Assembly: GCA_001724265.1 (NCBI GenBank)
Contig: MEDY01000029.1
Location: 62,001 to 122,548, forward strand
Reading direction: 5' to 3'
DNA length: 60,548 bases
Origin: Rhizaria sp. SCN 62-66
Taxonomy: Eukaryota
Positions 1-38,712 of the stretch are shown here, one piece after another (positions within the stretch are counted from its first letter, which is position 1; every line of letters starts with the position of its first letter). Made by a program: the position numbers and the translations under genes. The notes beneath the pieces are model-generated. The model saw only the letters and a program-made list of their open reading frames with translations. It ran no database searches and was not told the origin of the DNA.

Positions 1-3000
1 TGGCGGGGTGGACGCGGTACTGCATGCGCAGACGGACTAAGCGGACGCAGACGGGGCCACCGGCGGTGGCCGCGCGACTGCTCGCGAAGGCGGCATTGTT
101 GCGAGGAGTGCTTACGGCAGTCGAGATAGCGCCGGAGAGGTCGCTGGGAGTATCTGTATGTGTGTTCGTAGCTACGGTTGCGCTGCAATCGTTATCGTCA
201 ACAGTGATTGCAAAGCGGGCGAGCCGGACGAACAGCGACCTTCCCAGGCCCGCAATCGCACCAGGGTCGCTCAGGCTCCCGCCCCCATTGCTGCTCACCA
301 CAGCGGCAGGGTCGCCATCGCCTGCATCGGGCTCGCCAGTATCCGTGCCGACCGCGGCCTCCGCCGCCCGCGCGGCCGCCCGGTACGCCGGCGGCGCCCA
401 GGGCAGCCCCGCGAGCGCGGTCAGCGCGGGCAGCGTCGGTGGCAGCTGCAGCGGGTCGCCCACCAGCGCCACGGCCTCGGCGCCGGCCCGCAGCAGCGGC
501 AGCAGCGCCAGCGGCTCCGTCGTCTGACTCGCCTCGTCGATAAAGCCCAGGGCGAAGCGCTGTCCGCGCAGCGCGTCCGAGGACGAGGAGATGCAGGTGG
601 TGCCGATGATGCGCGCTTTGAGCAGCCGCTGCGACCGCGTCTCGAGCGTCACGTCGCGACTGATGTGGCTGTATGAAGTGCTACTGTGTGCGAATAGAGA
701 CGAGCCGCCGCGCGCTGTCTGCTTTTGAGTCGCGCCTGACTCCGACAGCGCGCGTAAGTGGGCGAGCTCGTCCTCGGCGTCCGCGATAGCAGCGCGCACG
801 GCAGCCTCCTCATCGTCATCCTCGCTATCTACATCTGCCCTCGTGTGATTACTCCTGGCAGACGGCTTGGCTGCGGCTGCGTTACCGTTGCGGAACACGA
901 GTTTCGCGGTGAAAAGCCCCGCCGCGGCCGTGGCGGTGCGCGAACGGCCCAACGCCGCCAGCCTGTCCCTGAGCGCGCGCAGCGATGACGTCACGGCCGC
1001 CACGGCGCTGCCGGCCGCGGACGCTGACGACGACGACGCACCGGCCTTGGTCCGCTTCCGCCCCTTCCCAGCAGGGCCAGAGCCCGGGCCAGAGTTCGCG
1101 GCGGCGGCGGCGTTCGGTGCGGCGAGGCCGTGCGCGGTGAAGGCGAGTAATCCTTTATCGATCTTCATCGCGGACCCGACGCGCGCGAACTCGCGGCAGC
1201 CAGCGCGGCGCAGGCGCAGCAACACGTTGTCCGCAGCCGTGTTGGTGTGCGCCGCGAGGAGGATCCGCACGGTGCACTCGGGGTCGAGCTCCGCCAGCGC
1301 GGTCGCGAGCATGAGCAGGCAGCAGGCGAGCAGGTGCGACTTACCGCTGCCGAAGACGCCGTGCACCAGCACCAGCGGCGCCACCGTGGCCCCACGAGTA
1401 CCATCAAGAGTACCGTGTGTTCCCGTGCGAGTGTCATGTGCTCCCGCGAAAGCGTCGTGCGTACTCGAACCATCCGCATGTGATGTCGCTGTCGCTGTAT
1501 AGAGGTCGGTGACCCACGCAGCGCACTGCTGCAGCACTGAGAACTGGTCGCCGTTGAGCGGAAACCGCGCTACCGCCGCGTCGCACGCTGCGGCGACGCG
1601 CGCGCGGGCCCAGTCAAGCCGGGACTGGGAGTGCAGCGCGCGCTGCAGCGCGGCCAGAGGCGGCAACAGCTGCGCTGCCGAGGGGGGTTCCGTGTGCAGC
1701 GCCGACCTGAAACCACCGTGACCGTGACCGTGACCTTGGACAGACGTCGCAGCGGCGCCGTCACTGCGCCAGCCAGCTGCGGTGTGCAGCGACGTGAGCA
1801 GCTCAGCCTGTTCGGCTGCGGTCGTCGGCATGGGCCGCCACAGCATCGGCGCCAGCGGCGCCGATGCCAGAGCTGCGACCACTGACAGCGGCAGCGGCGC
1901 CATGCCACTGCTGCTCAGAGTCGCCGCCCCGCCAGCGCCGTGCTGCGCGGGGTGCTGCGCGAACTGATGTTGTTGCCGTTGCTGCGGGGTGAGGGCGAAC
2001 GCCGGGTGCGTGTTCGCCGCAGAGAACGCCGCCAGCGGGCCCAACGCACTGTGCAGCGCGGCCAGGGTTGGCGCCTCGGTCGACAGCGACCCAACGCGGT
2101 AGGCGAAGCAGGGCCGCCGAGCGGAGAGCTTGATTGCTAGTGGCGACGGCGGCAGTGAAAAGGCGGCACTCGCAGCGGCCGGGGCGGGGGACACGACGGC
2201 GTCGGTGAGGGTCGTCGCTGGCACTGTGGGCAGAGCAGGGTTACTCGCATTCACGCCCAGACTGCCGCAGTCGCTGCTGCTGAGGCTGTGCAGTGCGAGC
2301 GTGGACTGGAACGCGGCGCCGGTGGCCGAGGCGACAAGCGGCGACGGGGCGAAGAGGGGCTCGTGCAGAGGCAGCAGCTGCAGTAGTCCGCGCGGCGTGA
2401 ACGAGTGCCAGAGCGACACGAACAGGAACGGGTTCGAGAAGCTGCCGTCGAGCGAGACTGCCCATAAGTCAAGCCGCCCCAGGTCGCGGGGCAGCTGGGG
2501 GGTGCCGATGGTGGTGCCGGTGACGCTGCTGTAGCCGCTCGAAGCGCCGCCGCCGTACTGCCGTCCAGAGCCGCCGTGACTCCCGCTCCCACTGCCAGTG
2601 GTAAAGCCGCTGCTGCCACCGCCAGCGCTGCTGCTGCCAGAGCGGGAGGCGGGGGAGTCGAATTGGTCGGCCTTGGGAGCGAAACGGAGATACCACGCGA
2701 AATCGCTCGGATTGCTGCTGCTGCCACTCTTATCGTCGTCGTCATCGTCGGCGTTGTCGTCGTCGTCGTCGCCGTAGCCGTCGTGAGAGCGACCGTATTT
2801 GCCCCCTCGGCCGCCGCGGCCGCCGCGCCAGCCGCCGCCGCGGCCGCCACCGCGTTTACTATAGCCGCCGCCGCCGAAGCCGCTGTCACTATCCCTGTCC
2901 CCCTTGTTAGTGCCGCCGCTGTGGAACTTGATGAGGGACATGGTGGCCGGGGCGAAGGCGCCGGGGACCCCGGCCGCGGCCGCCGCGTCGCCCGGCGTGA

Positions 3001-5504
3001 CGGTGACGGGGACTAAGCCGGGGCATGGGACGGCCGGGAGGGCCATGGGCTTCTGTTGACCATAACCTTGATTTCCAGGTTGCTGCTGTTGTTGCTGCTG
3101 GAGGCGTGCGTGATGCAGCTGTTGCGCCACTAAACGACTGGCATTCGCCGCCACTGCAGCTGCGTATGCTGCCCCAAGCTTGGCCGCCGCGGGAACAACG
3201 ATGCCGCCGAATATGTGGTCCCAGCTGGCCGCAGTGAGCTGCGACACGTAGGCGGCTAGACTTTGATACGACCGGGGCAGCGGGGCCAGCGGCGGCAGAT
3301 TCACCGTGACAGACGCAGCAGCATGGCCTATGTTGTTCGTGGCGCTGTTTGCGAGTGCAGTGGGGGCGTTGGCTGGGAGATAGAGAGCGGGCGGGGGAAA
3401 GAAGATGCGCGGCGCGTGGCTCGATACAACAGAGACGCTCCCAATGCCAGGGCCGGCGCCAGCGCGAGTTTGGGAGACAACATTGGGAGCATTCAGTTGA
3501 ATGTTAGCAGGCGTATTGCGTGATATAGTGTCACTGTGATGAACCAGTTGCTGCTATTGCTGCTGTAAATGGTGCTGCTGGTGTTGTTGTTGTTGCTGTT
3601 GCCATGGGTTGTGCTGAGATGCTGCCGAATGACCATGAGTCGAAGTAGCTGCAGCGGAGTGACCGTGAGCCGCTGCTGTTGCTGCTGAGTGTGGCGCGTT
3701 GAGCTTAAAGGCAGTACTGTTGTTATGCGTTCCCGAGCTCTGCGTGAAGCCAAACTTGTCGACACCAAACGTCGCCTTTGCTGGGACAGCAGTTGGTGCA
3801 ATAGCGACGTTGCTGCTCAGGTCGTCATTCTCGTAGCTCCTGTCAGCCTGGTCATCTTTGCTGTCACTGTTGGCGTTATCGTAATTCATCAGAGTAGTGG
3901 CCGGGTGGGTTGCCTACATGTAATTATACTGGCCGTGACCTGCAAAGTGACCTGCGTAGTGACCGTGGGCAGAGTGACCGTGCGCAGCATCAAAGTGACC
4001 GTGAGCACCCTGCCCAGCACCCCCCGTCACATCCACAGTCCTCGCCACGGCCGTCGCCATAGCGTTTTCGACCGCGGCTACTGCGCTGTCCGCAGTAACC
4101 CCAAACCACCGCGGCCGCGCCCGGTCGGCGACGCCGGAGCCGGGCACGGTGGCCAGAGCGCGCAGAACGGCGGCGTCGGCTTCACGGTCACTCAGCAGCC
4201 CACGGTCAGGTGCCGGCGCACGGCCACTTGGCGCACGGTCATTGGGCGCAAAGTGACCGTGGGCTGCAGCAGCAGCAGCAGCAGCAGCATGAGGGTGACC
4301 GTAGGCAGCATGGGCAGCGGCAGCGGAGTGACTGTGGGTCAAGTGTTGACCCTGCTGCTGCGGATGTTGCTGTGACGACTGCTGCTGCTGTTGCTGTTGC
4401 AGTTCTTGTTTTTGCTGTAGTAGCTGTTCTTCCTCGTATTGACGCTGCTGCTGCTCTTGCTCTTGGTCTTGCTGTGGCAAGATGTACTGCTGTTGCTGAC
4501 GTGGCTGTTGGTGCTGCTGCTGTTGTTGCTGCTGCACCTGCTGGTCATTGTAGTGCTGCGGCTGCTGCTGGTAGAGGTTCTGTTGCGGAAACTGCTGCAG
4601 CTGCTGCTGTTGCTGATGTTGTTGTTGCTGATGTTGTTGTTGCTGATGTTGTTGTTGCTGATGTTGTTGTTGCTGCTGCTGCGGTGCTGGCTGCAGCTGC
4701 GGCATCAACGGCTGAAACTTTTGCCTGCCGACGCCCGCGCCCGCATTCGCACTCGCGTTCAAGGGAAGCAACGGCAGCGGCCCCTTGCGCTGCGGCCCTC
4801 CCAACGGCGTCACCCTCTGCTGCCCGGCGGTCAACGCCTGCTTCGCCCTGGCGTTGGCCTTGTTCTCGATGAAGGTCAGCAGCGGCGTCGGCGACCCGTC
4901 GCCGTCGAGCTCAACGAGGAACGCAGGCGTGAACTGGAATGTCTCGCCTGCCTCTTCCTCGGTCCGCTACCCTATCCCCGTCAGAGCCGCGGCCAGAGGG
5001 GCGCGCAGAGAGGCGGCGGCGAGCTCACGCCCCAGACAGGGCGGCGGCGCGGCGCCGGGGCCGAGGCCGAGGTCGGCCGCCAGCGAGTCGCCGCTGTTGC
5101 TGTTGTGGAGTCGAGGTTTGAGTGCGGGGGCGGGGGCGTCGTCGTCGTCCTCGGGCGAGGCCCAGAGGCGGGCTGAGGTGCCGCGGATCAAGAGAAAGCC
5201 CTCAGACCAGACCTATAAATGTACAAACAAAAAATAAATCGGCAAAAGATGTCAGGGATATGCAAATGTACATCAGAGTGAGAGTGATGAGACAACAATG
5301 GTAAGTTTAGTGTAGCGTGAGTGCGAGTGCGCAGACCTTCTTCTTGCGCGTGACGTGGGGCGTGTACATCACGGTGACGCAGGTCCACTGGTTGGCCACG
5401 GCAGGGTTGGCCGACGCGGTGGCAGACGCAGAGGACGCTGTGGGGGCCTGAGCTGCGGACGGAGGCGCCGCGGGAGCGCCCTGGAATGGGCCGTATCCCT
5501 GCAT
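1..5504 (-). CDS. ZGRF1: ZGRF1-like protein: N-terminal DUF2439-like domain, Q-rich linker, UPF1/DNA2-type SF1 helicase. 3' partial; contains 3 in-frame TAG codons
   Basis: Exon 1 5504-5337 (MQGYG...VMYTPHVTRKKK), intron 5336-5213, exon 2 from 5212 (VWSEGFLLIRG), giving the DUF2439-like YT..KKKVWxxG motif. The same frame runs to the window edge with LVHGVFGSGKS (about 1336-1370), ILLAAHTNTAADNVLL, ARVGS, IDEASQ, VGDPLQLPP and LRMQYRVHP. The only stops found are TAG at 4967-4969, 3914-3916 and 3554-3556. An upstream exon is possible. Confidence 0.85.
4600..4680 (-). repeat. 15-nt coding tandem repeat (CAGCAACAACAACAT)n encoding HQQQQ units
   Basis: gctgatgttgttgtt repeated on the + strand, inside the ZGRF1 Q-rich linker. 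Confidence 0.9.
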
Positions 5505-5935
5505 CGCCTGCGGGATAGAGAACGAAATAAATAACTCAGTAAAGAAATAAGTCAATATATCAATAAAATAAAATACATTAATGAACATATATCGGATATA
5601 CTTTCATAGATACAAGTTATGGGCTGATTTTCGTTAGATAGAGGTAAAAGCGGTGGGCGGGAGGAAGCTGTTGCCTCAGGTCCGAGCATGAAGGATGTGA
5701 AAAGCATCAAAATCGACAGTTATAGCGTTATAATTTAGCGAGTACACTAAAACAACACGCTCGAGTATTATACTTAAACGGTAGCTCTATTAACGGACAC
5801 TGCATGCTCACCCATATATCTCTGCCATCGCCTACCCCAGCCTCCTGACCACAAACAGTTGGCAACACTTTTCCGCCTTACCCTCCCACAGACGCACAGC
5901 ACGCAGTGTCACCCTGCGTTTCTCTCTGCCGCGCC

Positions 5936-7234
5936 ATGTCCGACGACAAATTCGCCTCTGACAACTACCGCTCTTCGTTCTCTGCCCCACAGAAGCCCAA
6001 GCACGACGGCGCCAACTTCACCTGTCAGCGCTGCTACCAAAAGGGACACTACACGTACGAGTGCAAGAGCGCCGATGTCATCTACCGCGCCCGCCCCACC
6101 GCCACCGCGCGCACCATGGAGCGCCACAACAGCTACGGCGCCAGCGCTGGTGCCGCGGCCGCGGCTGCGGGGGAGCCTGCAGTGAGGAATGCTTCTTTGC
6201 CGCCCAGCCTCATCCGCCAGCAGGTCCGTAAGCATCGCTAAATCACTAGAATCTCTCATATACCATATACGAATGTCATTGATCAACAAGCTCATGTGTA
6301 GTATCTATTTAACTTGATTTGTGCTCTGTTTACTGCTTTAGAGTGTTGCTGAGAAGCTTGCCCTGATCAAGAAGCAGCAAGAGGCCATGCGCGCTCGCCA
6401 AACGGCCGACGCTGACGCCGCCGCTGCTGCTGGTGCTGCGTCTGCTGCTAACGCTGACGCGCGCTCACAGTCGCGGGGCAGGGGCAGGGACAGGGGCGGC
6501 CGCCGCTCTGACTCACGGTCACGCTCGCAGTCCCTCTCGCGGTCACGCTCACCTCAGTCACGCTCACGGTCGCGCTCACGGTCATCTGAGTCACGGTCGC
6601 GCTCACGGTCACCTCGCTCACAGTCATCAAGGTCGCGCTCACGGTCGCGCTCACGGTCGCGCTCACGGTCACGGAGCCCGCGCCGCAGCGGCGTGAAGAA
6701 CGAGGAGGTCAAGACTGAGCCCACGGTCAAGAGCGAAGACAACGGCCACAGCAAAGGTCACGCCGAGCCTCGCAGCCGCAGCAGCAGCAGCGGCCGCTAC
6801 AGCAGTAACCGCCGCGACCGCAGTGACCGTGACCGCGACAGTCGCCGCCGTCGGCATCATCATCGTCGCAGCCGCCGTAGCCGCCGCTATAGCGATAGCA
6901 GCAGCGACAGCAGGGGCAGCAGCAGCGACAGCGGCAGTAGCAGCGACGGCGACAGCGGCAGTGACAGCGGCAGCGACCGCAGGCGTAATCGCAAGCACGG
7001 CCGCTCACGCTCGCGCTCACGGTCGCCGCACGCGGGTGGCGGCCGTGACCGCGCTGACCGCGACCGCGAGCAACGCAGTGGCCGCGATCGCAGTGGCAGT
7101 GGCCGTAAGACTACGACTGCGCCTGCGCGCAGTGCGAGCCCGGTTGTCAAGACCGAGCCCGGACTGGCTGGCGCCACAGCTGCAGCGCCTGCGGCTGACT
7201 CGGACTTAGCAGCTGTCTCGGGGAGCAGCAGTCT

Positions 7235-11300: not shown

Positions 11301-14045
11301 CTGGTGGCGCCCGAGGACGGCGACCTGTGGGGCTGTGAACCGCCGCGGCCGCGCGTTCAGAGCACTGACACGCCGTACGCTGATGAGTCGATCCGCAACA
11401 TGATGGAGGAGTACGACGACATGGTGGCCGAGGCCGCGAACCCGAAGCTGTCGTACAAAGAGCTGAAGGCGCGCCGCAGCAAGGACGCGGCCTTCGACGC
11501 CGAGGTCGAGGCTGAGGCCGAGGCGGAGCTGGCGGCGGAGCGGCGTCGGAAGAACAACCGCTCTGCGCAGTCCAAGGCGAGTAACAACGACTCCGGCTCT
11601 GCGTCGTCGGCATCGTCGTCCGAGAAAAGTGACGACAAGAGCCTGGACGACATGGACGCGGAGGACAGAGAGGCCTACCACGACGCCATGGACGACAACA
11701 TCGACGACGGTGACGAGGACCAAGGCGACGACAGCGACGTCGACGGTGAGAGCGAGTACGACGAGGACCAGTACGACGAGATGCTTCGCGTGCGCGACGA
11801 GTACGGCGACGAAATCGACGCCCACGCCAGAGCCCGCAGTGCATCGTCTTCTGCTTCCTCTTCGTCCTCTGCCTCTGCCTCTGGCTCTGCCTCTGTCTCG
11901 GTTTCGTACGATGACGATGGCGAGGTCATTGAGAGCCGTGAGGCGCTTGATGCCAAGGTCTCGGCCGACATTGCCAGTGTGTTCATCCAAATCGACGCAC
12001 AAATCACCCTCAGCAACAGCAGCAGCAGCAACGGCACGAATGCTGTCAATGCTAGTGCGAACGGCAACAGCACCGCTAACAACAACCTCAACAGTACTGC
12101 TACTGCTGCTGCTGTTGTGGCTGACCAGAAGCGCGGCGTCGCCCGCGCCAAGCTGTCCGCTGCCGAGCGCGTGACGGCGGTCAAGAAGCGCAGTCTCATG
12201 ACCAAAATGGCGCGAGACAACCGTGTCGCCCAGCGCAAGCACGCGCGCGCCCAGCGTAACCGCCGCCAGAGTCGCCGTCACGGTCACAATAGCACCAAGG
12301 CCAACAGCACTGCCGCGGCGAGCAACAGCACCGACAACGGCAACGCTACTGCCGTTGCCGCACCCGTTGCTCCCAAGCTCTCCCCTGTCGGCCCCAAGCA
12401 CGCCAACGCCAACCCGCACGCGCACACGTCCGCTGCGAAGCCGCATGCCGCCCACTCCGAGCCCGCCGCCGCCGGTGCTAAGAAGGCCCCCTCTGCTGCA
12501 GCGCTGCTGTCGACGGCGAGCTCCAACTCCGGCGTCGACAAGACCGTCTTCGCGGGGGTGACGGACAACATGAGCCTCACCCGCTCCGGCGCGTTGTCGA
12601 AGCTGCTCTCGGCGATCGAGCGCTCGGCCACCGCGACGCTGCTCGCGCACGAGACCGCCAAGGCGGTCATGCAGGAGAAGCGCAGCAACAACCGGCTGAT
12701 GCGCCGCGGCGGCCGCGAGCTCTTCGCTGCTGAGGCCGCGGGGGGCAAGCTCGCTGCTGCCGCCAAGAGCGTTAAGAAGGCCGACGGCATCGTCTCCGAC
12801 TCAACCTACTTCGACGGACTGGACCAGCGGGCCATGGCCGAGGACGTGGCAGCCGCGGCGCATGCCTCCGCCGCGCTGCAGCGTGTGCGGCGCTTCCGGC
12901 ATCAGGGTGGCGCCAGCTTTGCGGGATCCAAGACGCGCATGGCGGCCTCGATCCGCGCGCGCGAGGGCAAGATGCGCCGGCTGACCGTCGACGAGTCGCT
13001 GCGCAGCGCAGAGAATATTGAGGCCGCCATCCTCGACAAGCTCAGCAACGAGAACAAGATGGAATCACGGCTCGCGCCCGAGCGCCACTACTTCCAGGTA
13101 CGACGATGATTTGCGCTAAAACAAAGATATAAGATATCTCGCTCAATTTTTGCTTGATTGAAACTCGAAGATAATATACATGTTCTTGAATTGTTTGTAG
13201 ACTCAATTTTATTCAAAGTATTTTCTCCTAATCACATATCACTCATATATCAAACGTGTATTCCTCTTCTGCGTTAGGTGGAGCTGTGGCGCGAGATGTC
13301 CCCATTCCAGCGCCACGTCGAGGAGCGCGTGGGCCGCGCCTGCTTCTGCGAGTTCATCTCGTACTCTGAGCACCTTCCCCGCACCGTGCCCCTTCCGGCC
13401 TTCGCCCCCGTGCCCGTCGCCTCGCGCCCGGCCCTCCTGCCCGGCACCATCTACACGGCGCCTGTGCCCATCGCCGAGGAGGCCGCCGCGCGTGCCGCGG
13501 CTCCCGCGCAGTGCACGCCCACGGAGGCGTCGGAGCGGCTCTACGAGAGCGCGCAGGACCTGCGGCGCATCCTTAAGGTCGTCGCGCCGTACACAGAGGT
13601 CGTCACAGTAGCGCGGTCCGACGACTACTTCCTCCCGCCAGAGCTCACGCCCGAGGTCGAGTGGCTGACGCTGTCGGCGCTCCACGAGGCCGGACTGGGC
13701 ATCGCGCGCGTCGCCGTCTCCAGAAACGCCAGTGCCGGCGCTGGCAGTAACTCGACGGCCAACAACTCGACTGCGGGTGGCATTAGCAACGCGGTGGCGA
13801 GCGACGAGGCCTACGCGGCCGCGTCCGCCGATGCCAAGGCCGCCGCCGCGGGCGCGAAGGCCCCCGGTGTGGGCGGGACCGGTAGCGTGCTGAAGCAGTT
13901 CATCCAGATGGAGCAGCTGCTGGAGCTGACGATTCCGCCGACGGGCATGTGCACACGCGCCGCGCCCTTCTGCGTCGACTGGAAGCGCCCTCGCGCCGAA
14001 CGCTGCTGGGTCACCGAGTACAGCAACGACGTCACCTTCCCTTAA
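8346..14045 (+). CDS. UPF0489 (C5orf22-like) family protein with N-terminal signal anchor and large insertions, about 1840 aa
   Basis: Motifs IHISRDHHWAF, VVHVDTHSDL, LTIANYI, VLLDVDMDFF and VTVARSDDYFLP match the UPF0489 pattern. Hydrophobic segment LMLIIAPLALFALAGWAFAL. Exons 8346-13097 and 13278-14045 (GTACGA...TAG). Stop TAA. Confidence 0.75.
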
Positions 14046-17000
14046 GCGGGCGAGAGGCAACGCAAGCACAGCACTCAGGAGTGAGTAAGCACACAATCTT
14101 GTGAAGACTGCACTGAATGCATTCTTCTGATGTTCGTGTGTTCTCATTGTGTCTGTTGTGCGTTGCGACCGTCAGCCAGCAGTCTTAATCCAGTCCCCGT
14201 CAATCGAGACAGTTAGTACGCAAATCAATTGATTAGTCGAGCCAATTAAGTCAAATCCCTCTCTCAGGTCGTCCGTCCTCCATCTATCGCAGCGTCGGCC
14301 TGTGAATAATCTGATCCCCGTCAGTTAAAATTCTTCATTTCTGATTATCACATACTCGTATTTGTCTTGTTTGTCTCTTGTTTTGTATATTGCGTCCTCG
14401 TATTTCTTAATACTAGTTGGCTCTATTTTTTTAATGTGTTTTTTAATCTCCGTGATACTGTGTGTAGGTGGGATACACGTGAGCGCACTGTTCGTATCAG
14501 TCGCTTTCGCTCACACGCACACAGTAAAACCTTCATCAGACTCTGTGTGTACATGTACATTCTCTCTTACACCGTAAGCAAGAAGTATGTTATGCAACGT
14601 AGCTTTGTTTCACCACGTGGCAACCGAAAGAACCCGCTCATGATGTATCTCTATCTTAACTCCTGTCGCACTGCTGTCTGTGTGTGTGTGATGTTTCTGT
14701 TCGTGCTCCTTTGCGACATGTTGAGTTGTTGTTGTTTTCGCTGTCCAAACGTCGCCGTGCACTGCGCCGGACCCCGGTTCGTTTCGCACTTGACGGCCCG
14801 CCGTTCACCTCTCGTGGGGTGCGGCAGGGTGTCGTGCTAGAGAGATCCGCACTTCCGCCGCACGGAAGCGACCGACGCTGACAGCAATCAGCAGCGCCGA
14901 CAGCAAACAGCAACGCCGACGCCAGCACTAAACACGAACGCGACTAACGAGCACCGCAGCGCCGGCGACGCCGATGTAGTGGTTTCTCAGCACGACAGTG
15001 CTTGCGACCAGAGTCATGTGAAGATACCGCCCCGCCAAGAGATGTGTTTTTTTTGTTTGCTACCAAAATGGCATTGCCTCCAGATCTTGAAAATACCGCA
15101 AAAAGATATCCAATGCGCGACACAATCTTGCCTTAGATTTGATTCTACTTCTAAGACTGTGGCTGTTGGTTACCTTTGCAATGCAACGTGTGCACTCAGC
15201 TCGTCGCAGTGTGCTTTTGTCTGCTGGGTGTGTTGTCTGGAATGAGTTTATTAGTTTGTTGTAGCCCTGTGTCGTGCGACTCTGCACTGTGCGCTGTGCT
15301 TCCGTGTTGGATCGGTGTTGCGTCTGGTTCACTCTGTGCCTTGCGCTCATCTCCAACGCGTCAAAACAAACGCAGAGCTTCTACTCCTTGAACACTCACA
15401 CACACGTACACACAAGCACTCACGTGTCCTGCTTGCACACACGTTATCAAATATGTGTTTTAGTCCATGTACACCTAAATAATCTACATCAACCCCCTAC
15501 ACGTACTCTTGTATAGACGTACTTGTAAACAAACTAGTTTTTTTGCTTGAACATTTGTCACCACAGCCGAAATCATTTTGCTATCAGATTGCTTCGTGTT
15601 TCGTTTTTATTTGTAGGATTCCCGAGTGTATTCTGTTTTTGGTTTAGTTTGTGTTGATTGTCTGTTTTCGTTTTGTTGTTGTTGTTGTTTACTTTTTGTT
15701 TCTTGATCATGTTAGACAACGAGCGCAACGCAGCCAGTAGCACTCAGCACGCTTGGCCGCATGTTACAGCTAGCTGCGCTCGCCTCGTATTGCTCTCAAA
15801 TCACTCACATCACTTAATCACAGTATCTCGCTCGCTTTCTCTCTCGACACCATTTCGCTTTGCTCACTTGCGAACAACTGGCATCATCACTCGTCTCACG
15901 GATCGGTGTGCGTTCGAGTGCGGCTGCGCCTTTATACGGCCGTTCGTTGTCCCTCTTTGTGTGGTTTTGACAACGGCAACACGTATTCGACTTGCGCTCT
16001 ATTGAAGCAAATCGGTGTGTTCAACTCCGAAGAGAGACGGTGCGATGTGTTGTGTATTATATTTGAGCAGTATGTTGATCTGTCATATGATTTCATCTAG
16101 ACAAATGTTCACGAATCTTCGTTTTTATATGTTTTTGCGTTTCGCCGCCAATGTGAAGTTTTTTATATCATGTGTTTTTTTATAATCGCGTTTTTTATCA
16201 TATCGCTTGTGTCGTGTGTCAATACCGGTCCACTGCTGCCATTGGTCGCCTCTTTGTCCTTGGTGCGAGTTTCAATGGTTCCCATTAATCCGCGCTTCCG
16301 AACTGAGGACAACTACAACGACAGCGGCTGTGGACGCATACGTATTCACACGACTCCAGCACTATGATAACGCGTTTTTAGTCGTTTGTTCACTCCGTGT
16401 GATGGTCTTTTCTGCTCTCTGTCCGTGTGTCGCTACTGCCGGCCCCGCCTGCTGCCGACAGTGTCGCTGCGTGATGCGATGTGATATGTTAGCGCGAGTC
16501 TGGAGCTCTCTCCAACTGCGCTCGCTCTCATGTGCACTGCAGCGCTCCCTGTCGTCAGTCGGGTGTGTCCTGCCCGCATGTTCCGAGCGAAACCTCCCGT
16601 CTCCGTCCTTGTGTCGTCATCGGCATCGTCATCGCCGTCGTTCCCACCGCTGTTCCCTGTTGGCAAGCACGCGCTACGTGTCTGCAGACTACTCTCCCCC
16701 CTCGTCTTCCAGTCCGTCCAGTCCTGTCCAGTCTCACTCGTCATCCGTTTGCCCGTCTGTCTGTATGTCCGCCCTCTGTTCGACCGATTCCCGTCCAATA
16801 CCTCCACCGCCGCCACCGCCAGCGATGCCGGTGAGCCGTTCTATTCGCAATGACGCGCCAACTCACACTGTGTTCTCACCGCCATGTTATAGTCACGATC
16901 GCGCACGCATCAACACGCACTCGCATGTGGGGCAAGTTTTGCTCTTGGGTGGGTATTTGCATGTGGATCACTACTGTTATGGCGCTTGAACACAGTGATT

Positions 17001-17205
17001 ATGTATGTTGGTGCGTTGTTAAATTCAATGCGTACCACCACTTCACATACGAGGGCTAGCCAGATCCCATCAATGGTATTGTACAGTCACCACGACGACG
17101 ACGACGACGATGACGGCAACTGTCGCAACGACACGTCGCGAGCGCACGCGCTGCCACCCTCACTAGCACCCACCAGTCTCTGTCTTCCCTTTCCCTTTCT
17201 CTCGA

Positions 17206-17235
17206 TTTCTCTCTCGCTCTCTCTCTCTCTCTCTC
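17206..17235 (+). repeat. (CT)n microsatellite
   Basis: ctctctcgctctctctctctctctctc. Confidence 0.85.
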
Positions 17236-17772
17236 GCTTGCAAACTCTCGTGTTGCGATGTGCATGTAAGTGTAGTGTGCTTGTGGCTTACGTCGATGTG
17301 TTATTCACCACAAAGCCACAATACGCGCACACGAACAGGCTCAAAGCAACCGTGTGTTTGCACCGCGACTCGCTAGTCATAGCACCTTAACTCCATTTAT
17401 CATCGTCTCCGGAAGTCAAAGACTGTGTGTTTTTTATTTCAGCGCCTTCGCCCGACGTGTTTGTTCGCTCCCGTCTCACTTCATCCCCACTGCACACGCA
17501 CACTACTACTAACGCACCACGCATTTAGAGTCTTCTCTCAATACATTGCTTTAATCAGCTGCAAAAGAATAACAATGTGAAATGTACTGAGAAAATTGTA
17601 TGGCTTGATTGAATCTAAGTATGAAAACCATTTTGTCTAAGTAAAACTTCTGTCTAGATAACCGCACAACGAAGGTGTGTATCAGGCAACACTTATGAGT
17701 CAGACACAGGAGAGAGTCACAACACTCCCTGTTCCCTCACCCTGGCCGTGCGTTCCCACTCGTGCGTTTCGC

Positions 17773-18437: not shown

Positions 18438-19061
18438 GTTCGTCCCCTTCTACAGCAAAATACGGGATATAATGACGAAGTCAAGACATAGAGAGGCGTA
18501 GTTATGAGATCGTGTACATTTATAAAATTTATATGTCAAAATTTCGTTATAAATTTCATATATGTCTATCTTTTCGTTCAAATCCAAAGAAAAAGTAGGG
18601 ACAGCACCTCAACGTCTCTCGACTTCGGTCGGCCTCACAAAACCAACGCCCAGACCACCAAAACGTAATGCTAATAGTGACTATTAAGGGTGTAAAGTAC
18701 CAACAACGCAAGGCATCTTGGGTTAGCGTTACAGAACGTTTGGCGGTCATAATATGCCAGGGCAGATGTTATTTAACAGGTTCGTTTCTCAGTCAAAAGC
18801 GGCCTAACTTCATCCCTTTCAGACTGGACTGGCTTGTAGACCGGCCAGGCTGGCACCAGTCGTTCTCTATTTCGATGGCAGCTACCAAAGTTGGGCCCGG
18901 AGAGCGCTCACGCAATCAGCTCAGACTGGTGCTGAAATCCGTCAACCAACAAAATACCCGCTCTCAGTGATTTTAACGTGTACACTCTTTGTATTTATTT
19001 AATAATACTTCTCACAACCCCACATTCCCCCCGCTACATCTCCCCGCGCTCCACCCAGCCC

Positions 19062-21134
19062 ATGTCGAGCAAGCCCCTCAAGGCGCGCACGGGCCTGAGC
19101 AACCCCGCCGGCCTGGACGCACCCCGCGCCGGAGCCGCGGCGTCCGCGCGCCCGAACGCGCGCAAGGCCGCGCAGAAGAAGCGCCCCGTGACGCAGGTGG
19201 AGCGCAACCTCGCGGACCTGCTGTTCGACGACGCCGCGCCCATCACCAACCTGCTCGCCCCCATCGTCGATGCCGGCACGCCCGCCGCCGCCGCCGCCTC
19301 CGCCGCGGCCGAGGACGCCGCGGCCGCGAAGGGCCGCGGCAGCAAGAAGGCCCGCGCGGGCGACGCGGCGGGCGCGCTGGCGAGCGTGGTGCGCGAGGCC
19401 GCCTCGGAGTCGCAGTCGCAGCTTGGGCTCTTCGAGCTCTCGGGCGCCGGTGGCGACGGCGCGGGCGCGGCCGCGGCGTGGGCGGACGAGGACGACAGCG
19501 CGCACGCGGTCGACATCGCGAGCACCAACCGCACGCGCAAGCTCCGCGTCGCCGAGGATGAGACCGTCATCTCCAGCGAGGAGTTCATCAAGCGCCAGCG
19601 CAAGCAGTTCACCGCCATCAACCACGTACGTTCTGTTTCGCCCCTATTTAACAACACGCTTGAGAGTGATTATATTCATGAATTTGCATGTCGTGTTAAT
19701 TCCATATGTAATCGTTGTTTTCACATGTGTTTATGTATTCTTTTTATTTAACTAACATCTTCGTCTCCATAAATCGTGCTTTATACTTGCTATTCGCTCC
19801 ACGCAGGACGCCTCGTGGGCGCAGCTGCCCGCCGACGCCGCCGCTGCGGCCGCGGCCGAGGCCCCCACCGCGGCCGACGCCGAGGAGCTGGCGTCTGCCG
19901 CCGAGATCTCCCGCCGCATCCTGTCCAAGTCGGACGCGCTCACCCACACCGGCCGCGGTCTGGGCAACGGGCCCGACGCCAGCGAGCTCGCCGCGCTGCC
20001 CCAGGTATGGACTGTCTCCGATATCGTGACGGAAAAGCATCACGACAATAACATCTAGTCACCATTTTTGTACATTATATTTACTATTTAAATATCTCAC
20101 TTTTACTAAATATTATATCATAACTCATCGTTTGTTCCTATCTCGCTACGCAGGGCCGCCTTGAGATCTCACGCCTCCCCGACGCCAACGGCGCGGCGCC
20201 GCACAACGCCGTCTGCACCGCGGCGCGCTTCCACGGCAACGGCGAGCTATTCCTCACTGCCGGCATGGACAAGATGGTTCGGCTCTTCCACTTGGACCAC
20301 GCGCGCAACCCCTTGGTGCAGGGTGTGATGCTCGAGGACCTGCCCGTGCGCTGCGCCGACTTCCTGGGCGCGTCCGAGGTGATTGCTACGGGCCGCCGGC
20401 CGTACTTCTACTCGTACGACCTGGTCAAGGGCGCCGTGAGCAAGGTGCCCTACATCCGCGGGCGCGAGGGCCGCGAGAAGAGCCTCGAGCTCTTCCGCGT
20501 GTCCCCGGCCGGCGACCTCATCGCCGTCATGGGCGTCGACGGGTACGTCCTCCTGCTGCACGCGCGGTCCAAGCAGATGATCGGCAGCCTGCGCGCGCCG
20601 TGCCCGCTCAACGACCTGGCCTTCGGGCCCGCAGGCTCGGACCTGCTCTACACGGCCGGCAACGACGGGAGCGTCATGACGTGGGACCTCCGCACGCGCC
20701 GCTGCGTGGCGCGCCGCCAGGACGAGGGCGCCGTGCACGTGCGCTCCGTGGCGGCGTCCCCCGACGGCAGCTACCTCGCTGCGGGCTCAGACAGCGGCAT
20801 CGCCAACATCTACTCGGCCGCGCTCGACGCCGGCGACGACACGGGCGCCGCCGCGCGCCCGCTCAAGGGGCTGGACAACCTCACTACGGCCATCGACCGA
20901 CTCGCCTTTTCGGGCGCCGGCGAGATGATGGCCATGAGCAGCTACCGCAAGAAGGACTGTCTGCGGTTGGTGCACCTGCCCTCGCTGACGGCCTTCAACA
21001 ACTGGCCCACGGACCGCACGCCGCTAAGCTACGTGCAGGACGTGTCTTTCTCGCCTAACGGCGGGCTGCTCTCGATCGCCAACGACAAGGGCAAGGTGCT
21101 GCTGTACCGCATCAACCACTATCTCCAGGTCTGA
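19062..21134 (+). CDS. UTP18: U3 snoRNA-associated WD40 protein UTP18
   Basis: AAWADEDD..RKLR...RKQF at the N-terminus and NWPT..TPL...FSPNGGLLSIANDKGKVLLYRINHY at the C-terminus. Exons 19062-19625, 19807-20004 and 20154-21134, all phase 0. Stop TGA. Confidence 0.92.
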
Positions 21135-35348: not shown

Positions 35349-36097
35349 TGGGGTCAAAGATATCTCGTCTCGTCTCGTCTAGGCAAGGCGAATATCGAGC
35401 AGTCACGAACCTGGGTTTTCTTGAGGGCTAGAGAGATATAAAAAAAGAAACGAACACGTTGATCCGTGAAATTCGTGTCAGTATAACTTTGATTTGTATG
35501 TAATGTTTGTGTGTCTCACCAACCGATGCCTCCAAGGGCCATAAATCACACACTCGCAGCGCCACCACAAACGCTAAACCGCATATGCGATGAAACGACT
35601 TCGGAGAGTTCACGAGGCTGATAATCGAGATAAAGGTGAAAATTATGTATTCGTTGGTGCTTGTCATCTTGTGCTGTGTGTGCTTATACTTGTTTTGTCT
35701 TACTTTGTGTCAAGGTTCAAAGCTGTCTGTGCCCTGTCCATTTCTCTCGCTTAACTGCAGATACTCAAAAGATAACTAAAGGACTAGGTTAAATACCCGT
35801 GTCTGGGAACTAGCCGTGCGCAAACGGCGCAGCGGAGTCGTTGAGACGTATACTCACACCACCACAACATCGGCAAACTGTCACACACAGCAAGTGTTGC
35901 TGCTCGTGATGGTGCGGTTGGTGCCCCTGCTGGAGTGTTCGCATGGGGACAAGGACGCTACCACATCAGCGCTGCGAAGCGCGGAGTGCAGATGAGATAG
36001 CGGCGTGGTGAAAAATCAATTTAATAAACTAGAGAAAGTCATGTGCAACGTGTTGCCACAGCTGTGGTCGAAACAAGTTGCTCGCAAGTCGGCACAC

Positions 36098-36584
36098 TTA
36101 GTGAGCACCAGGCTTGGTGATACCCTGAGAAAAACGAGCGCAAAATAAGCAAGGGAAGCAATGAGCACAATTCGTATGATACAATACATCCGCGCAAGCT
36201 AGAATAATAAAACGCAGCACCTAGCCCTGAGCACGACAGCGTGACAGAGTGAGAGAGAAAGAGAGAGAGAAAGTGACGTACGAGGACGACCATGAGCTCG
36301 GCGTCGGCGCGCCAGCCGACCCAGGCGCCGGCGGCGAACATGGTGGCAGCGTAGGCGTAGAACTCCCACTGCGGCGCAATGGTCTCGTTGAGCTTGGCGG
36401 TGATCTCGGCAGGGCCCGTGAACGGGGCCGGCTTGCCCTGGCAGCCCATGAGGTTGGTCGTCTCCTGGGGGAAGATCGGGGTACGCCAGTTGCCGCCAGG
36501 CGCGGCGGGCATAATCGAGCCGTTGCGGCGGGGGATGGAGTACACGACGGACTCAACGCCACGACGAACAAGAGCCGAGAGCAT
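36098..36584 (-). CDS. Small (about 109 aa) single-TM protein with putative mitochondrial presequence
   Basis: MLSALVRR N-terminus, hydrophobic FYAYAATMFAAGAWVGW, strong C/G-ending codon bias. Exons 36584-36282 and 36124-36098 (GTACGT...CAG). Stop TAA. Confidence 0.7.
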
Positions 36585-37205
36585 CTACGTTCAGAGGAGC
36601 ACACGAAGGAAGAGGAAGCAGTACGGTGAGTGAGTAAGAACCGCGGGACGTGGAGAGAAACTGGCCAGTACATCACAGAACCATCGTACAATAGCAAACC
36701 AACATTAAATTAAAACAAAAAAACTATGCGATAATCACATATTAAAACCACAAATGAAAATAACGAGTGAAAGTAGGCGCAAACTCTCTGCAGAGTCGGC
36801 CCCCTGAGGCTCAAACCAAACGCTGGCTGGAGCACCAGCGACTCTGACTGACTGACCAACCGGCTTTCATTTGACCGTGCGTGCTCACAGTCTCAGTCCA
36901 AGTTTGACTAGCCAGTTGGCCGACGGGCGAGGGGGGTGACCAGTCGCTCGACGGTAGGGCCGAGTTTAATTCGCAGTTAGCTTCTCTTGACCGAGATAGC
37001 TGGCTGCGGATCTGAAAACTTGCACTGAGGGGGGGATTATTTTGTTTAGCATCGACTTATTTTATCTATGCGCGCTGGCACTGTTTATAGCGGTATTTTT
37101 AGTGCATTCGAAGAGGCCGTGGCGTGCCCCACCTTCCTGTCCGCGACCCAAACTCACCAGTTTTGTTCTCCTATCTTGCCCTTGTACACGCTGCTTTATT
37201 TAGAA

Positions 37206-38712
37206 ATGGGCAAGTTTGCGACTCTGCTTGTGGCTCTTATCGCCGTCAGTGCCGGCTTCGTTGTTCTGCGCTCCGGCGAGACCCTTCGTCTTGTTGGCGA
37301 TGGCGTACGTTACCCTGCTCCATGCCCGTAGCTCATTTCTATTTCTCCGACCTGCACCTCATAGACGCATGGCTTACGTCATCGGGCTATTATCCCAAAG
37401 TCTCATATTTTTTGTTCTTGCTATTGCAAAACTTTTCATTTCTTATATCTCACTTTAACCCCTTCTATTTGTCTTTTTTCCCGTTTCCCGCGCTTCCACG
37501 CACCTTCCCCTCCCATACCACGTTCCTTGCCCTTTTCTGACCCACGTGCTTTTGCCTCGCTGTGTCATCATGTCATCTGTGTGACCCTTGATATATTATA
37601 CTTGTGACTTCTCGTTTCTCTCCCGAGTGCAGAAGTCTCCCGGTATCCTGGATCTTTTCAAGAACCCCTTCATCCGCGACAAGATTAAGAACTCTGCCGA
37701 GGACTACCATGAGAAGAACATGCGTCTCGCCAGCGGTGAGATCAAGGAGCAGGATTCCGCCATGGTCGAGCACTACTACAACATTGTGACCGACTTCTAC
37801 GAGTACGGCTGGTCCCAGTCGTTCCACTTCGCGCACTACATGGACAACGAGTCGTTCGAGGAGTCCCTGGACCGCCACGAGCGCGCCCTCGCCTCCAAGG
37901 TCGACATCAAGCCCGAGCACAACGTCATCGACATCGGCTGCGGCGTCGGCGGCCCCGCGCGCAACATCCACCGCGCCACCAAGGCCAACGTGACCGGCGT
38001 GACGATCAACGAGTACCAGGTGCTGCGCGCCCGCGAGCACACGCAGGCCATGGGCTTCCAGGAGCGCGTCCACTTCCGCCAGATGGACTTCACCAAGCTT
38101 GACTTCGCCGACGCGACCTTTGACCGCGCGTACTCGATCGAGGCCACCTGCCACGCCACCGACCTCACCGACGTGTACCGCGAGGCGTACCGCGTGCTCA
38201 AGCCCGGAGGCCTGTTCGGTTCGTACGAGTGGCTCACCACGGACAAGCACGACGCCAAGAACCCCGAGCACGTCAAGATCATGCGCGACATCGAGTACGG
38301 CTCCGGCCTGCCCCCCATGCACTCGATCGCCGACGTGATGGACGCCGCCAAGAAGGTCGGCTTCGAGCTCGTGTTCGAGCACGACTACGCTCTCGAGACC
38401 AACTACACCCTCCCCTGGTACCACAAGCTCGACATGTCCTACATCTCGACCAGCATCACGCACTACTTCACTCTCTTCATGGAGACCATCGGCCTCGCCG
38501 CCCCCGGCTCCGTGCACGCGCACACCATGCTCCTGCACGCCGTCGACGGCCTCGTCGCCGGCGGCAAGTTCGGCACCTTCACTCCCATGCACATGGTCGT
38601 CTTCCGCAAGCCCCTTGCCGCCGCCAAGCCCGCTGCCGCCGCCGCTGCTGCTCCCGCTGCCCCCAAGGCCGCTGCTCCCGCCGCTGCTGCCCCCAAGGCT
38701 ACCAAGGTCTAA
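37206..38712 (+). CDS. SMT: Sterol C24-methyltransferase (SMT/ERG6 family) with N-terminal anchor
   Basis: YYNIVTDFYEYGWSQSFHFA, IDIGCGVGGPAR, YSIEATCHA and IEYGSGLP. Exons 37206-37304 and 37633-38712 (GTACGT...CAG). Stop TAA. Confidence 0.93.

Follow-up and report, generated by a model that had tools for sequence, protein, structure and literature searches.

Three in-frame TAG codons in one helicase gene from an uncultured protist of wastewater and the possible sense use of UAG

What does TAG mean in a reading frame that contains it three times and contains no other stop codon? The question is raised by a helicase gene on the minus strand of a 60,548-nucleotide stretch of DNA, the whole of which was analyzed here and is called the window.

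A long frame interrupted by TAG alone

An earlier note, made from the letters of this DNA, had described a minus-strand frame broken only by TAG, at three sites, over about 5.2 kb free of TAA, TGA, and frameshifts, with the gene split into co-framed open reading frame (ORF) pieces (4967..5191, 3914..4834, and 3554..3889). These observations were reproduced exactly. From 5212 to 2, the frame whose first codon base has a coordinate of 1 modulo 3 is open for 1,737 codons, with 3 TAG, 0 TAA, and 0 TGA; the TAG sites match to the base, and all three pieces are present in the ORF list. The two other minus-strand frames over this interval contain 35 and 43 stops. Between 5212 and 3554, each of them contains 13 TGA codons, versus 0 in the coding frame. 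The openness of the coding frame, compared with the others, is far beyond chance. The codon-usage score is also highest in the coding frame nearly throughout exon 2. GC3 is 0.95 directly past TAG1 (4940-4820), 0.42-0.7 from ~4400 to ~3300, and 0.8-0.95 in the helicase part.

Table 1. Features of the helicase gene (window coordinates)
Feature	Position	Strand	Description	Basis or setting
Probable splice acceptor (cag/)	5508..5510	-	5'-UTR intron or spliced leader	3 bases upstream of ATG
Exon 1	5337..5504	-	56 codons, ATG 5504-5502, end ...VMYTPHVTRKKK	translation; cDNA contig X5 record 23
Spliceosomal intron	5213..5336	-	124 nt, GTCTGC...TTTATAG, 40% G+C, phase 0	X5 record 23
Exon 2	1..5212	-	single frame to window edge, 1,737 codons	frame scan, codon usage
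TAG1	4967..4969	-	GGG TAG CGG	between two halves of N-terminal motif region
TAG2	3914..3916	-	ATG TAG GCA	His/Gly/Ala-rich repeat region, same frame both sides
TAG3	3554..3556	-	CAA TAG CAG	Gln run with interspersed Leu
AAA_11 (PF13086), UPF1-like superfamily 1 helicase	431..1375	-	residues 1273-1587 of window:2-5191	E 3.8e-28

The gene does not start where it was first assumed to start, as an upstream exon and an intron were found (Table 1). A spliced contig (run X5, record 23) covers 5332-5509 and connects exon 1 to exon 2, with 5207 and 5332 directly adjacent in its sequence. Because the five bases gtctg fit either side of the joint, the intron cut was placed at GT..AG. The same intron is retained in a contig of DNA run X3 (record 8). 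The match of the X5 contig stops at 5509, leaving 21 extra letters (746 versus 725 aligned), and 5508..5510 reads cag after a pyrimidine tract; this site is probably the acceptor of a 5'-UTR intron or a spliced leader. The three introns measured in the window have 34-46% G+C. At its other end, the gene continues past the window; its longer protein (P0121) ends in ...DALLDVEE.

The claim that the helicase motifs downstream are intact was confirmed by Pfam, with AAA_11 in the window and both AAA_11 (E 1.3e-28) and AAA_12 (E 2.8e-36) in P0121; the AAA_12 domain falls outside the window. ZGRF1/Mte1-type helicases consist of a DUF2439 N-terminus, a GRF zinc finger, and a UPF1-like AAA_11/AAA_12 core, of which the core is common to the helicase here. 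No match to zf-GRF (PF06839) was obtained in the read-through protein, nor in P0121 at E<=10, and the proposed DUF2439-like domain at the N-terminus was not recovered by Pfam at E<=10 when the two exon products were scanned separately. Because both of these Pfam matches are missing, "ZGRF1" and "DUF2439-like" are labels based only on a weak likeness: the N-terminal motif ...YTPHVTRKKK/VWSEGFLLI resembles the N-terminus of a helicase relative (P0124) at a nonsignificant level (BLAST E 0.37). The helicase part has its best named match in a Percolomonas protein with zf-GRF (32% identity).

Three assemblies (P0121, P0133, and P0134) contain the complete helicase part and differ by only one in-frame 7-residue indel and one substitution. 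No second copy or uninterrupted version of the gene was found among proteins of 955-3,040 aa, and none of 595 pattern matches to the helicase in JGI metagenome contigs was confirmed as a relative. For the N-terminal region, a word-indexed search scored 8,000 low-complexity candidates, none of which passed, and a full HMMER search retrieved 4 matches at E<=0.001, namely the gene's own 74-residue piece and 3 low-complexity sequences.

Persistence of the TAGs and use of TAG elsewhere in the window

Run X3, which belongs to a study other than the probable source of the window DNA, has DNA contigs spanning all three TAGs without a single difference. Agreement is complete at TAG1 in X3 record 8 (DNA) and the spliced X5 record 23, at TAG2 in X3 record 3, X4 record 11, and X9 record 25 (polyA RNA library), and at TAG3 in X3 record 2, X4 record 11, and X5 record 19; no alternative letters are listed at any of these sites in the 4 runs compared. 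An assembly error, which the earlier note had put forward as a possible refutation, was therefore not borne out. The same is true of removal by splicing or editing, as the TAGs are unchanged in the RNA-derived contigs covering them. With the GT-AG intron removed, X5 record 23 is unbroken through TAG1. This spliced form is one contig with a depth of 6.6, from a run labeled RNA-Seq for which a tool guess reads "probably DNA." Because the intron is also present unspliced in X9 (record 30), the contigs of that run may derive from pre-mRNA or DNA, and the RNA-library contigs over TAG2 and TAG3 may likewise reflect pre-mRNA or DNA carry-over. Six in-frame GT..AG candidates with a GTRNG donor lie across the TAGs; they have 65-73% G+C and purine-rich acceptors. 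Judged by composition, these candidates are unlike the measured introns, and no plausible in-frame intron spans any TAG.

A strain contrast was considered as a test of selection and rejected. Run X4 differs from the window by ~1.3% in 5505-6341 and hardly at all in the gene body. The neighboring zf-CCHC coding ORF is as diverged as intergenic DNA, so the contrast looks like a haplotype block and not like purifying selection.

The 18 ORF ends in the window, some of which may be exon ends in this intron-bearing genome, comprise 9 TAA, 9 TGA, and 0 TAG. If TAG made up 20% of terminators, the probability of drawing none would be 0.018; with a share of 25%, it would be 0.0056. Frequent termination at TAG, another possible refutation, was thus not observed. 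The stop of a sterol methyltransferase gene is the sole end compared with a relative, in which the aligned codon is TAA (contig L001). A TAG at 20056 looked terminal and was rejected, as it lies within an intron of a UTP18-like gene. A lineage that merely avoids TAG as a stop, as reported for Guttulinopsis vulgaris in PMC5304391, would also give 0/18.

As the earlier note had cautioned, in-frame TAG is confined to one gene: the 19 other ORFs or exons of the window contain 0 in 12,774 codons. Three TAGs placed at random would all hit the helicase gene with a probability of 0.0017 when all codons are considered and of 0.013 when Gln codons are. Of the 129 CAA codons counted, 51 are in this gene, which makes a clustering of rare codons there only mildly surprising (p 0.06, CAA weighting). 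ARAGORN predicted 0 tRNA genes in the window, an Rfam scan returned 0 matches, and the eRF1 gene is absent from the window.

Weighing sense use against decay, readthrough, and artifact

The tests for error, splicing, and terminator use all failed to refute the earlier reading of UAG as a sense codon, and these three failures raise it from conjecture to the likeliest explanation, with the lack of TAG in the other window genes counting against it. We consider it slightly more probable than not that this organism uses TAG as a rare sense codon. UAG would then be no effective terminator in this protist and would be decoded as an amino acid, probably through a tRNA with anticodon CUA (Gln or Leu type), while still being very rare as a codon. 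The helicase gene would yield one long protein of ~2,200 residues (56 codons of exon 1, the 1,737 codons of exon 2 in the window, and ~360 residues inferred from P0121). TAG1-3 would fall in its weakly codon-biased, disordered N-terminal third, where rare codons may be expected to collect. Translation through the TAGs, the tRNA, and the organism-wide scope are what we infer; one gene cannot prove reassignment of TAG.

Gene-specific decay under the standard code is a less likely explanation. Here, the N-terminal third (TAG1 to ~3283) would have been knocked out by nonsense mutations, with the helicase made from an internal start, or the whole would be a young transcribed pseudogene. The restriction of the TAGs to the first third of a single gene fits this account, as do the lower GC3 from ~4400 to ~3300 than in the helicase part and the fact that gene callers begin the helicase protein downstream of TAG3. 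TAG is moreover the commonest nonsense product expected, at 61% of random nonsense changes in the segment, so that three TAGs in three has a p of only ~0.23. Against this, 553 codons are free of TAA, TGA, and frameshifts over a length in which the other frames contain 15 and 17 stops. Nonsense changes make up 4.3% of substitutions; three of them imply ~70 neutral substitutions in 1.66 kb, which by estimate rather than computation should bring several frameshifting indels. Strong codon bias persists right past TAG1, and splicing of exon 1 to exon 2 is retained. Across TAG2, the frame encoding the His-Gly repeat motif does not change. TAG1 likewise stands in frame between the N-terminal motif, made up of exon 1 and the first part of exon 2, and what is likely the C-terminal half of that motif. 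Decay also leaves the 0/18 TAG terminators unexplained. Unitary (unprocessed) pseudogenes resemble this locus in having premature stops in an otherwise recognizable gene. The helicase gene differs from them in that it has no frameshifts and a single stop type, keeps codon bias and splicing, is transcribed, and has its downstream two-thirds intact in several assemblies. Among the usual signs of a pseudogene (frameshifts, mixed stops, and lost codon bias), only the reduced GC3 at ~4400-3300 was found.

Leaky or programmed readthrough of UAG in this gene, with an otherwise standard code, appears improbable. Near-cognate tRNAs would act at low efficiency and give little full-length protein. At two of the three sites, the base after TAG is C, the leakiest +4 base in eukaryotes, and TAG3 (CAA TAG CAG CAA) resembles the tobamovirus CAA-UAG-CAA context. 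The 100 nt past TAG1 fold somewhat better than shuffles (z = -2.24), but this downstream structure is not shared by TAG2 (z = +0.81) or TAG3 (z = +0.22), and the contexts vary among the three sites. Three successive events would multiply to a very small yield, and the missing TAG terminators would again be unexplained.

Lastly, the genome has introns, and these commonly end in TAG (as with the acceptors at 5213 and 18072; the TAG at 20056 is intronic), but a sequencing or assembly error, TAGs in unrecognized introns, or UAG editing is very improbable and largely excluded, given the identical TAGs in X3 contigs from another study (two also in X4), their retention in the spliced cDNA contig (TAG1) and in RNA-library contigs (TAG2 and TAG3), and in-frame GT..AG candidates unlike real introns.

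The organism and the meaning of UAG

The host is an uncultured, G+C-rich, intron-bearing protist of wastewater and bioreactor samples; 16 rows of public runs from such samples, in 9 studies, each contain at least part of the stretch. In a tree of the window's sterol methyltransferase, Guttulinopsis vulgaris is the one named member of the clade (support 99/97) that contains this protein, and this sainouroid genus was the only named relative found. Matches to the methyltransferase in metagenome contigs were limited to L001 (an 87% relative, 1.7 kb) and L002 (window-identical, 1.2 kb). In prokaryote genome contigs, the only candidate was an unrelated Chlamydiia MAG locus at 36%, which was rejected.

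According to the available text of Panek et al. 2017 (PMC5304391), the insect-associated sainouroid "Rhizaria sp. exLh" reads UAG as Leu, Guttulinopsis is its closest sequenced relative, and G. vulgaris avoids TAG as a stop. A literature search on the genetic code and stop codons of Sainouroidea and Guttulinopsis returned nothing on sainouroid codes beyond that paper. As judged from one gene tree that leaves out exLh itself, exLh and the window organism possibly belong to the same broad lineage. In the exLh code, as in the one proposed here, only UAG is altered, and the only terminators are UAA and UGA (56 and 15 there, 9 and 9 here). The sections of PMC5304391 consulted give 384 in-frame UAGs in 71 exLh genes, mostly at conserved Leu positions, whereas the helicase organism has 3 TAGs in one gene, 0 in 12,774 other codons, and no alignable position.

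The earlier note had considered Gln the most likely meaning of TAG, a preference that found no support over Leu. No homologue aligned at TAG1, TAG2, or TAG3 was found in searches of metagenome contigs and with the N-terminal region, so conservation gives no amino acid; when compared by eye with P0122 and P0124, TAG1 lies in a variable loop. The nearest named UAG-only lineage, exLh, uses Leu. In the unrelated fornicate Iotanema spirale, another UAG-only change, UAG encodes Gln with UAA still a stop; UAG is a minority codon there (~8% of Gln codons), and its meaning was shown at 22 of 28 hyperconserved Gln positions (PMC5304391, in the text available). No comparable position exists here, where one of the three TAGs lies within a Gln run. 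Gln and Leu are not distinguishable for this TAG.

Nuclear reassignments of UAG alone are rare and, according to the literature consulted, comprise exLh, Iotanema, and some ciliates. A tentative proposal, which we hold at somewhat less than even confidence, is that this activated-sludge protist is an uncultured, free-living sainouroid cercozoan related to Guttulinopsis, in which UAG no longer serves as a terminator and has begun to be used in sense at very low frequency. If the helicase gene proves to be decaying, the finding is ordinary. Should the proposal be true, this organism would be at an early point in the reassignment that exLh has completed, and the two would form part of a natural series on how a UAG-only change starts. 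Such a change may begin with a codon vanishing as a stop or may pass through an ambiguous stage; 60 kb with no TAG gene ends and three sense-like TAGs in a weakly biased region of one gene are what an early stage would be expected to look like. The repeated occurrence of this protist in public runs from wastewater and bioreactors means that its genome, tRNA complement, and eRF1 are recoverable from existing data.

Helicase gene and its in-frame TAG codons

From position 5212 to the first bases of the window, the minus-strand helicase frame (coordinate of the first codon base mod 3 = 1) spans 1,737 codons and contains three TAG codons, no TAA, and no TGA. Over the same stretch, the other two minus-strand frames carry 35 and 43 stops, and in the first 553 codons TGA occurs 13 times in each noncoding frame versus 0 times in the coding frame. 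Taken with the ORF pieces and the Pfam domains, these stop counts indicate that the three-TAG observation is right and far from chance. The earlier note was correct that the TAGs are the sole interruptions and that the gene lacks a frameshift; the ORF pieces it listed are those of the window's ORF track.

Features located in the window
Feature	Position	Strand	Details
TAG1	4969-4967	-	in-frame, helicase frame
TAG2	3916-3914	-	in-frame, helicase frame
TAG3	3556-3554	-	in-frame, helicase frame
Helicase intron	5336..5213	-	124 nt, GTCTGC...TTTATAG, 40% G+C
UTP18-like WD40 gene	18936-21134	+	three exons; introns start GTACGT and GTATGG, end ...cgcag
UTP18-like gene intron	20005..20153	+	holds in-frame TAG at 20056
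Sterol 24-C-methyltransferase gene	37206..38712	+	two exons
Methyltransferase intron	37305..37632	+	328 nt, GTACGT..GTGCAG; missing from L001

Contigs of four public sequencing runs were aligned to positions 2500-6500. In run X5 (library labeled RNA-Seq cDNA, guessed as DNA by the tool), contig 23 matches 4661-5207 and then 5332-5509 without a gap in the contig. Five bases (gtctg) could belong to either side of the joint, which makes the missing segment the helicase intron of the table; contig 8 of the DNA run X3 keeps this intron unspliced. The upstream exon begins with ATG at 5504, ends in ...VMYTPHVTRKKK, and joins VWSEGFLLIRG... in phase 0. Because the match of contig 23 ends at 5509, 3 bases before the ATG, with 21 further letters unmatched and a pyrimidine tract plus cag at this end (5505-5530, minus strand), a 5'-UTR intron or trans-spliced leader is likely. 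Other introns in the window look similar to that of the helicase gene. The window comes from eukaryotic nuclear DNA that contains introns; the organism was sampled from wastewater and bioreactor metagenomes. Two stretches of low G+C content (~48 to 54%), 14000-17700 and 35400-37200, lie in this otherwise gene-dense window of 60 to 75% G+C. Neither holds a well-scoring ORF, and 35400-37500 gave no Pfam match in six frames; both are large intergenic or intron-rich regions.

Pfam detects AAA_11 in the window's helicase and AAA_11 plus AAA_12 in P0121, the same organism's longer protein from another assembly, which provides the C terminus lying beyond the window. The downstream motifs are thus intact, as previously claimed, and the protein belongs to the UPF1-like SF1 helicases. 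Its best match among named sequences is a Percolomonas protein (32% identity) that carries a GRF zinc finger. For the earlier naming (ZGRF1, DUF2439-like domain), Pfam found neither zf-GRF nor DUF2439 in the gene products, and an N-terminal motif bears only a weak resemblance to that of the helicase relative P0124 (E 0.37). "ZGRF1-like" is a reasonable label for a putative family member.

Presence of the TAG codons in DNA and RNA

In run X3, from a study other than that of the probable source run, contigs 2, 3, and 8 together span the three TAGs and show 0 differences, which argues against misassembled CAG codons, and X4 contig 11 covers TAG2 and TAG3. None of the four runs lists a variant letter at these codons. 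The spliced X5 contig continues straight through TAG1, while TAG3 is covered by X5 contig 19 and TAG2 by contig 25 of X9 (a polyA RNA library), all with 0 differences. This evidence consists of contigs rather than reads, with the spliced form coming from one contig at a depth of 6.6. Since X9 contig 30 keeps the helicase intron unspliced, X9 contigs may be pre-mRNA or DNA; the contigs retaining TAG2 and TAG3 may be likewise. In-frame GT..AG candidates around TAG1, TAG2, and TAG3 number 51, 153, and 22, respectively. A GTRNG donor occurs in only six, all of which are 65 to 73% G+C with purine-rich acceptors, unlike real introns. With identical contigs, TAGs retained, and atypical candidate introns, assembly error, splicing, and editing are largely excluded as sources of the TAGs.

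Strains vary in the in-frame length of the helicase repeats (4157-4825 and ~2650-2700, minus strand), where X4 shows gaps of 6 nt and 30 nt and P0121 a deletion of 7 residues. Within 5070-6341, X4 has 15 differences, 5 of them in the zf-CCHC ORF 5849-6241, versus hardly any in the helicase gene body, which suggests a haplotype boundary near 5100.

Stop codon use and affinity of the organism

Codon-usage scores and Pfam were used to define 18 ORF ends, which are not proven termini, within the window: 9 are TAA, 9 are TGA, and none is TAG, so frequent termination at TAG is not seen here. The chance of 0/18 is 0.018 at a 20% TAG share and 0.0056 at 25%. The only TAG with the look of a terminator (20056) was rejected because it is intronic. 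The sole end compared with a relative is that of the methyltransferase, whose TAA aligns with the end of L001, a metagenome contig 87% identical. L001 has the same N terminus (a first exon of 33 codons, hydrophobic) without the GT-AG intron and is thus probably a transcript contig.

Environmental relatives of the methyltransferase share 87 to 58% identity; the best named match is Guttulinopsis vulgaris (65%), with other named sequences at ~54% or below. A maximum-likelihood tree of 43 rows puts the window's sequence in a 15-member clade (support 99/97) with Guttulinopsis as the only named member. As a tree of one gene, this makes Guttulinopsis kinship a lead rather than a placement. In a Chlamydiia MAG, a 139-kb contig (L003, 10001-10867) encodes a protein 36% identical to eukaryotic sterol methyltransferase (residues 42-329).

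According to PMC5304391, UAG means Leu in the sainouroid "Rhizaria sp. exLh," which usually groups as sister to G. vulgaris, and its only terminators are UAA (56) and UGA (15). In the same paper, UAA ends nearly all known G. vulgaris genes, and Rosculus has one gene with a UAG end. Our literature search turned up no further paper on the genetic codes of sainouroids. The exLh precedent makes a UAG change more plausible a priori and Leu as good a candidate as Gln, which the earlier note had preferred; either residue would be natural at TAG3 (...HHLQQQ*QQLVHH).

Interpretation of the TAG codons

The most likely reading, which we hold to be somewhat more probable than not, is that UAG is a rare sense codon for some amino acid in this organism. 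The TAGs are real in DNA and RNA and terminate 0/18 ORFs, but they occur in one gene; as the earlier note observed for Q-rich genes, TAG is absent from the 12,774 codons (470 Gln, 966 Leu) of the window's other 19 ORFs or exons. Under random placement, all three would land in the helicase gene with a chance of 0.0017 when all codons are counted, 0.013 when Gln codons are, and 0.06 when TAG is taken to track CAA, a rare Gln codon (51/129 in this gene). The window yielded no tRNA gene, Rfam match, or eRF1 gene, and searches for N-terminal relatives found no homologue aligned at any TAG site.

This confinement to one gene would also fit the main alternative, in which the N-terminal third or the entire gene is decaying; we regard this as unlikely. 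Codon bias is relaxed in the N-terminal third (GC3 0.42 to 0.7 from ~4400 to ~3300), compatible with a weakly selected disordered region and also with decay. Of the nonsense changes expected in the segment, 61% would yield TAG, more than either other stop, so three TAGs of three are unremarkable. However, the frame is unshifted, codon usage favors it almost throughout, GC3 is 0.95 directly 3' of TAG1, and the same His-Gly repeats continue in frame on both sides of TAG2. Nonsense changes constitute only 4.3% of substitutions in the segment; three hits imply ~70 neutral substitutions in 1.66 kb, which by our uncomputed estimate ought to be accompanied by frameshifts, TGA, or TAA. The helicase part is intact in three assemblies, differing by one substitution and one in-frame indel (7 residues deleted from a Ser/Gly run in P0121 relative to the window and P0134). 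No second copy or uninterrupted version was found among proteins of 955 to 3,040 residues.

Gene-specific readthrough is improbable, as the three contexts differ, no common structure is seen in the 100-nt stretches that follow TAG1, TAG2, and TAG3 (z -2.24, +0.81, and +0.22, respectively), and three leaky stops in series would leave little product.

If UAG is indeed a rare sense codon, this would be another UAG-only nuclear code beside those known, and might capture reassignment at an early stage, in a lineage with one completed case.
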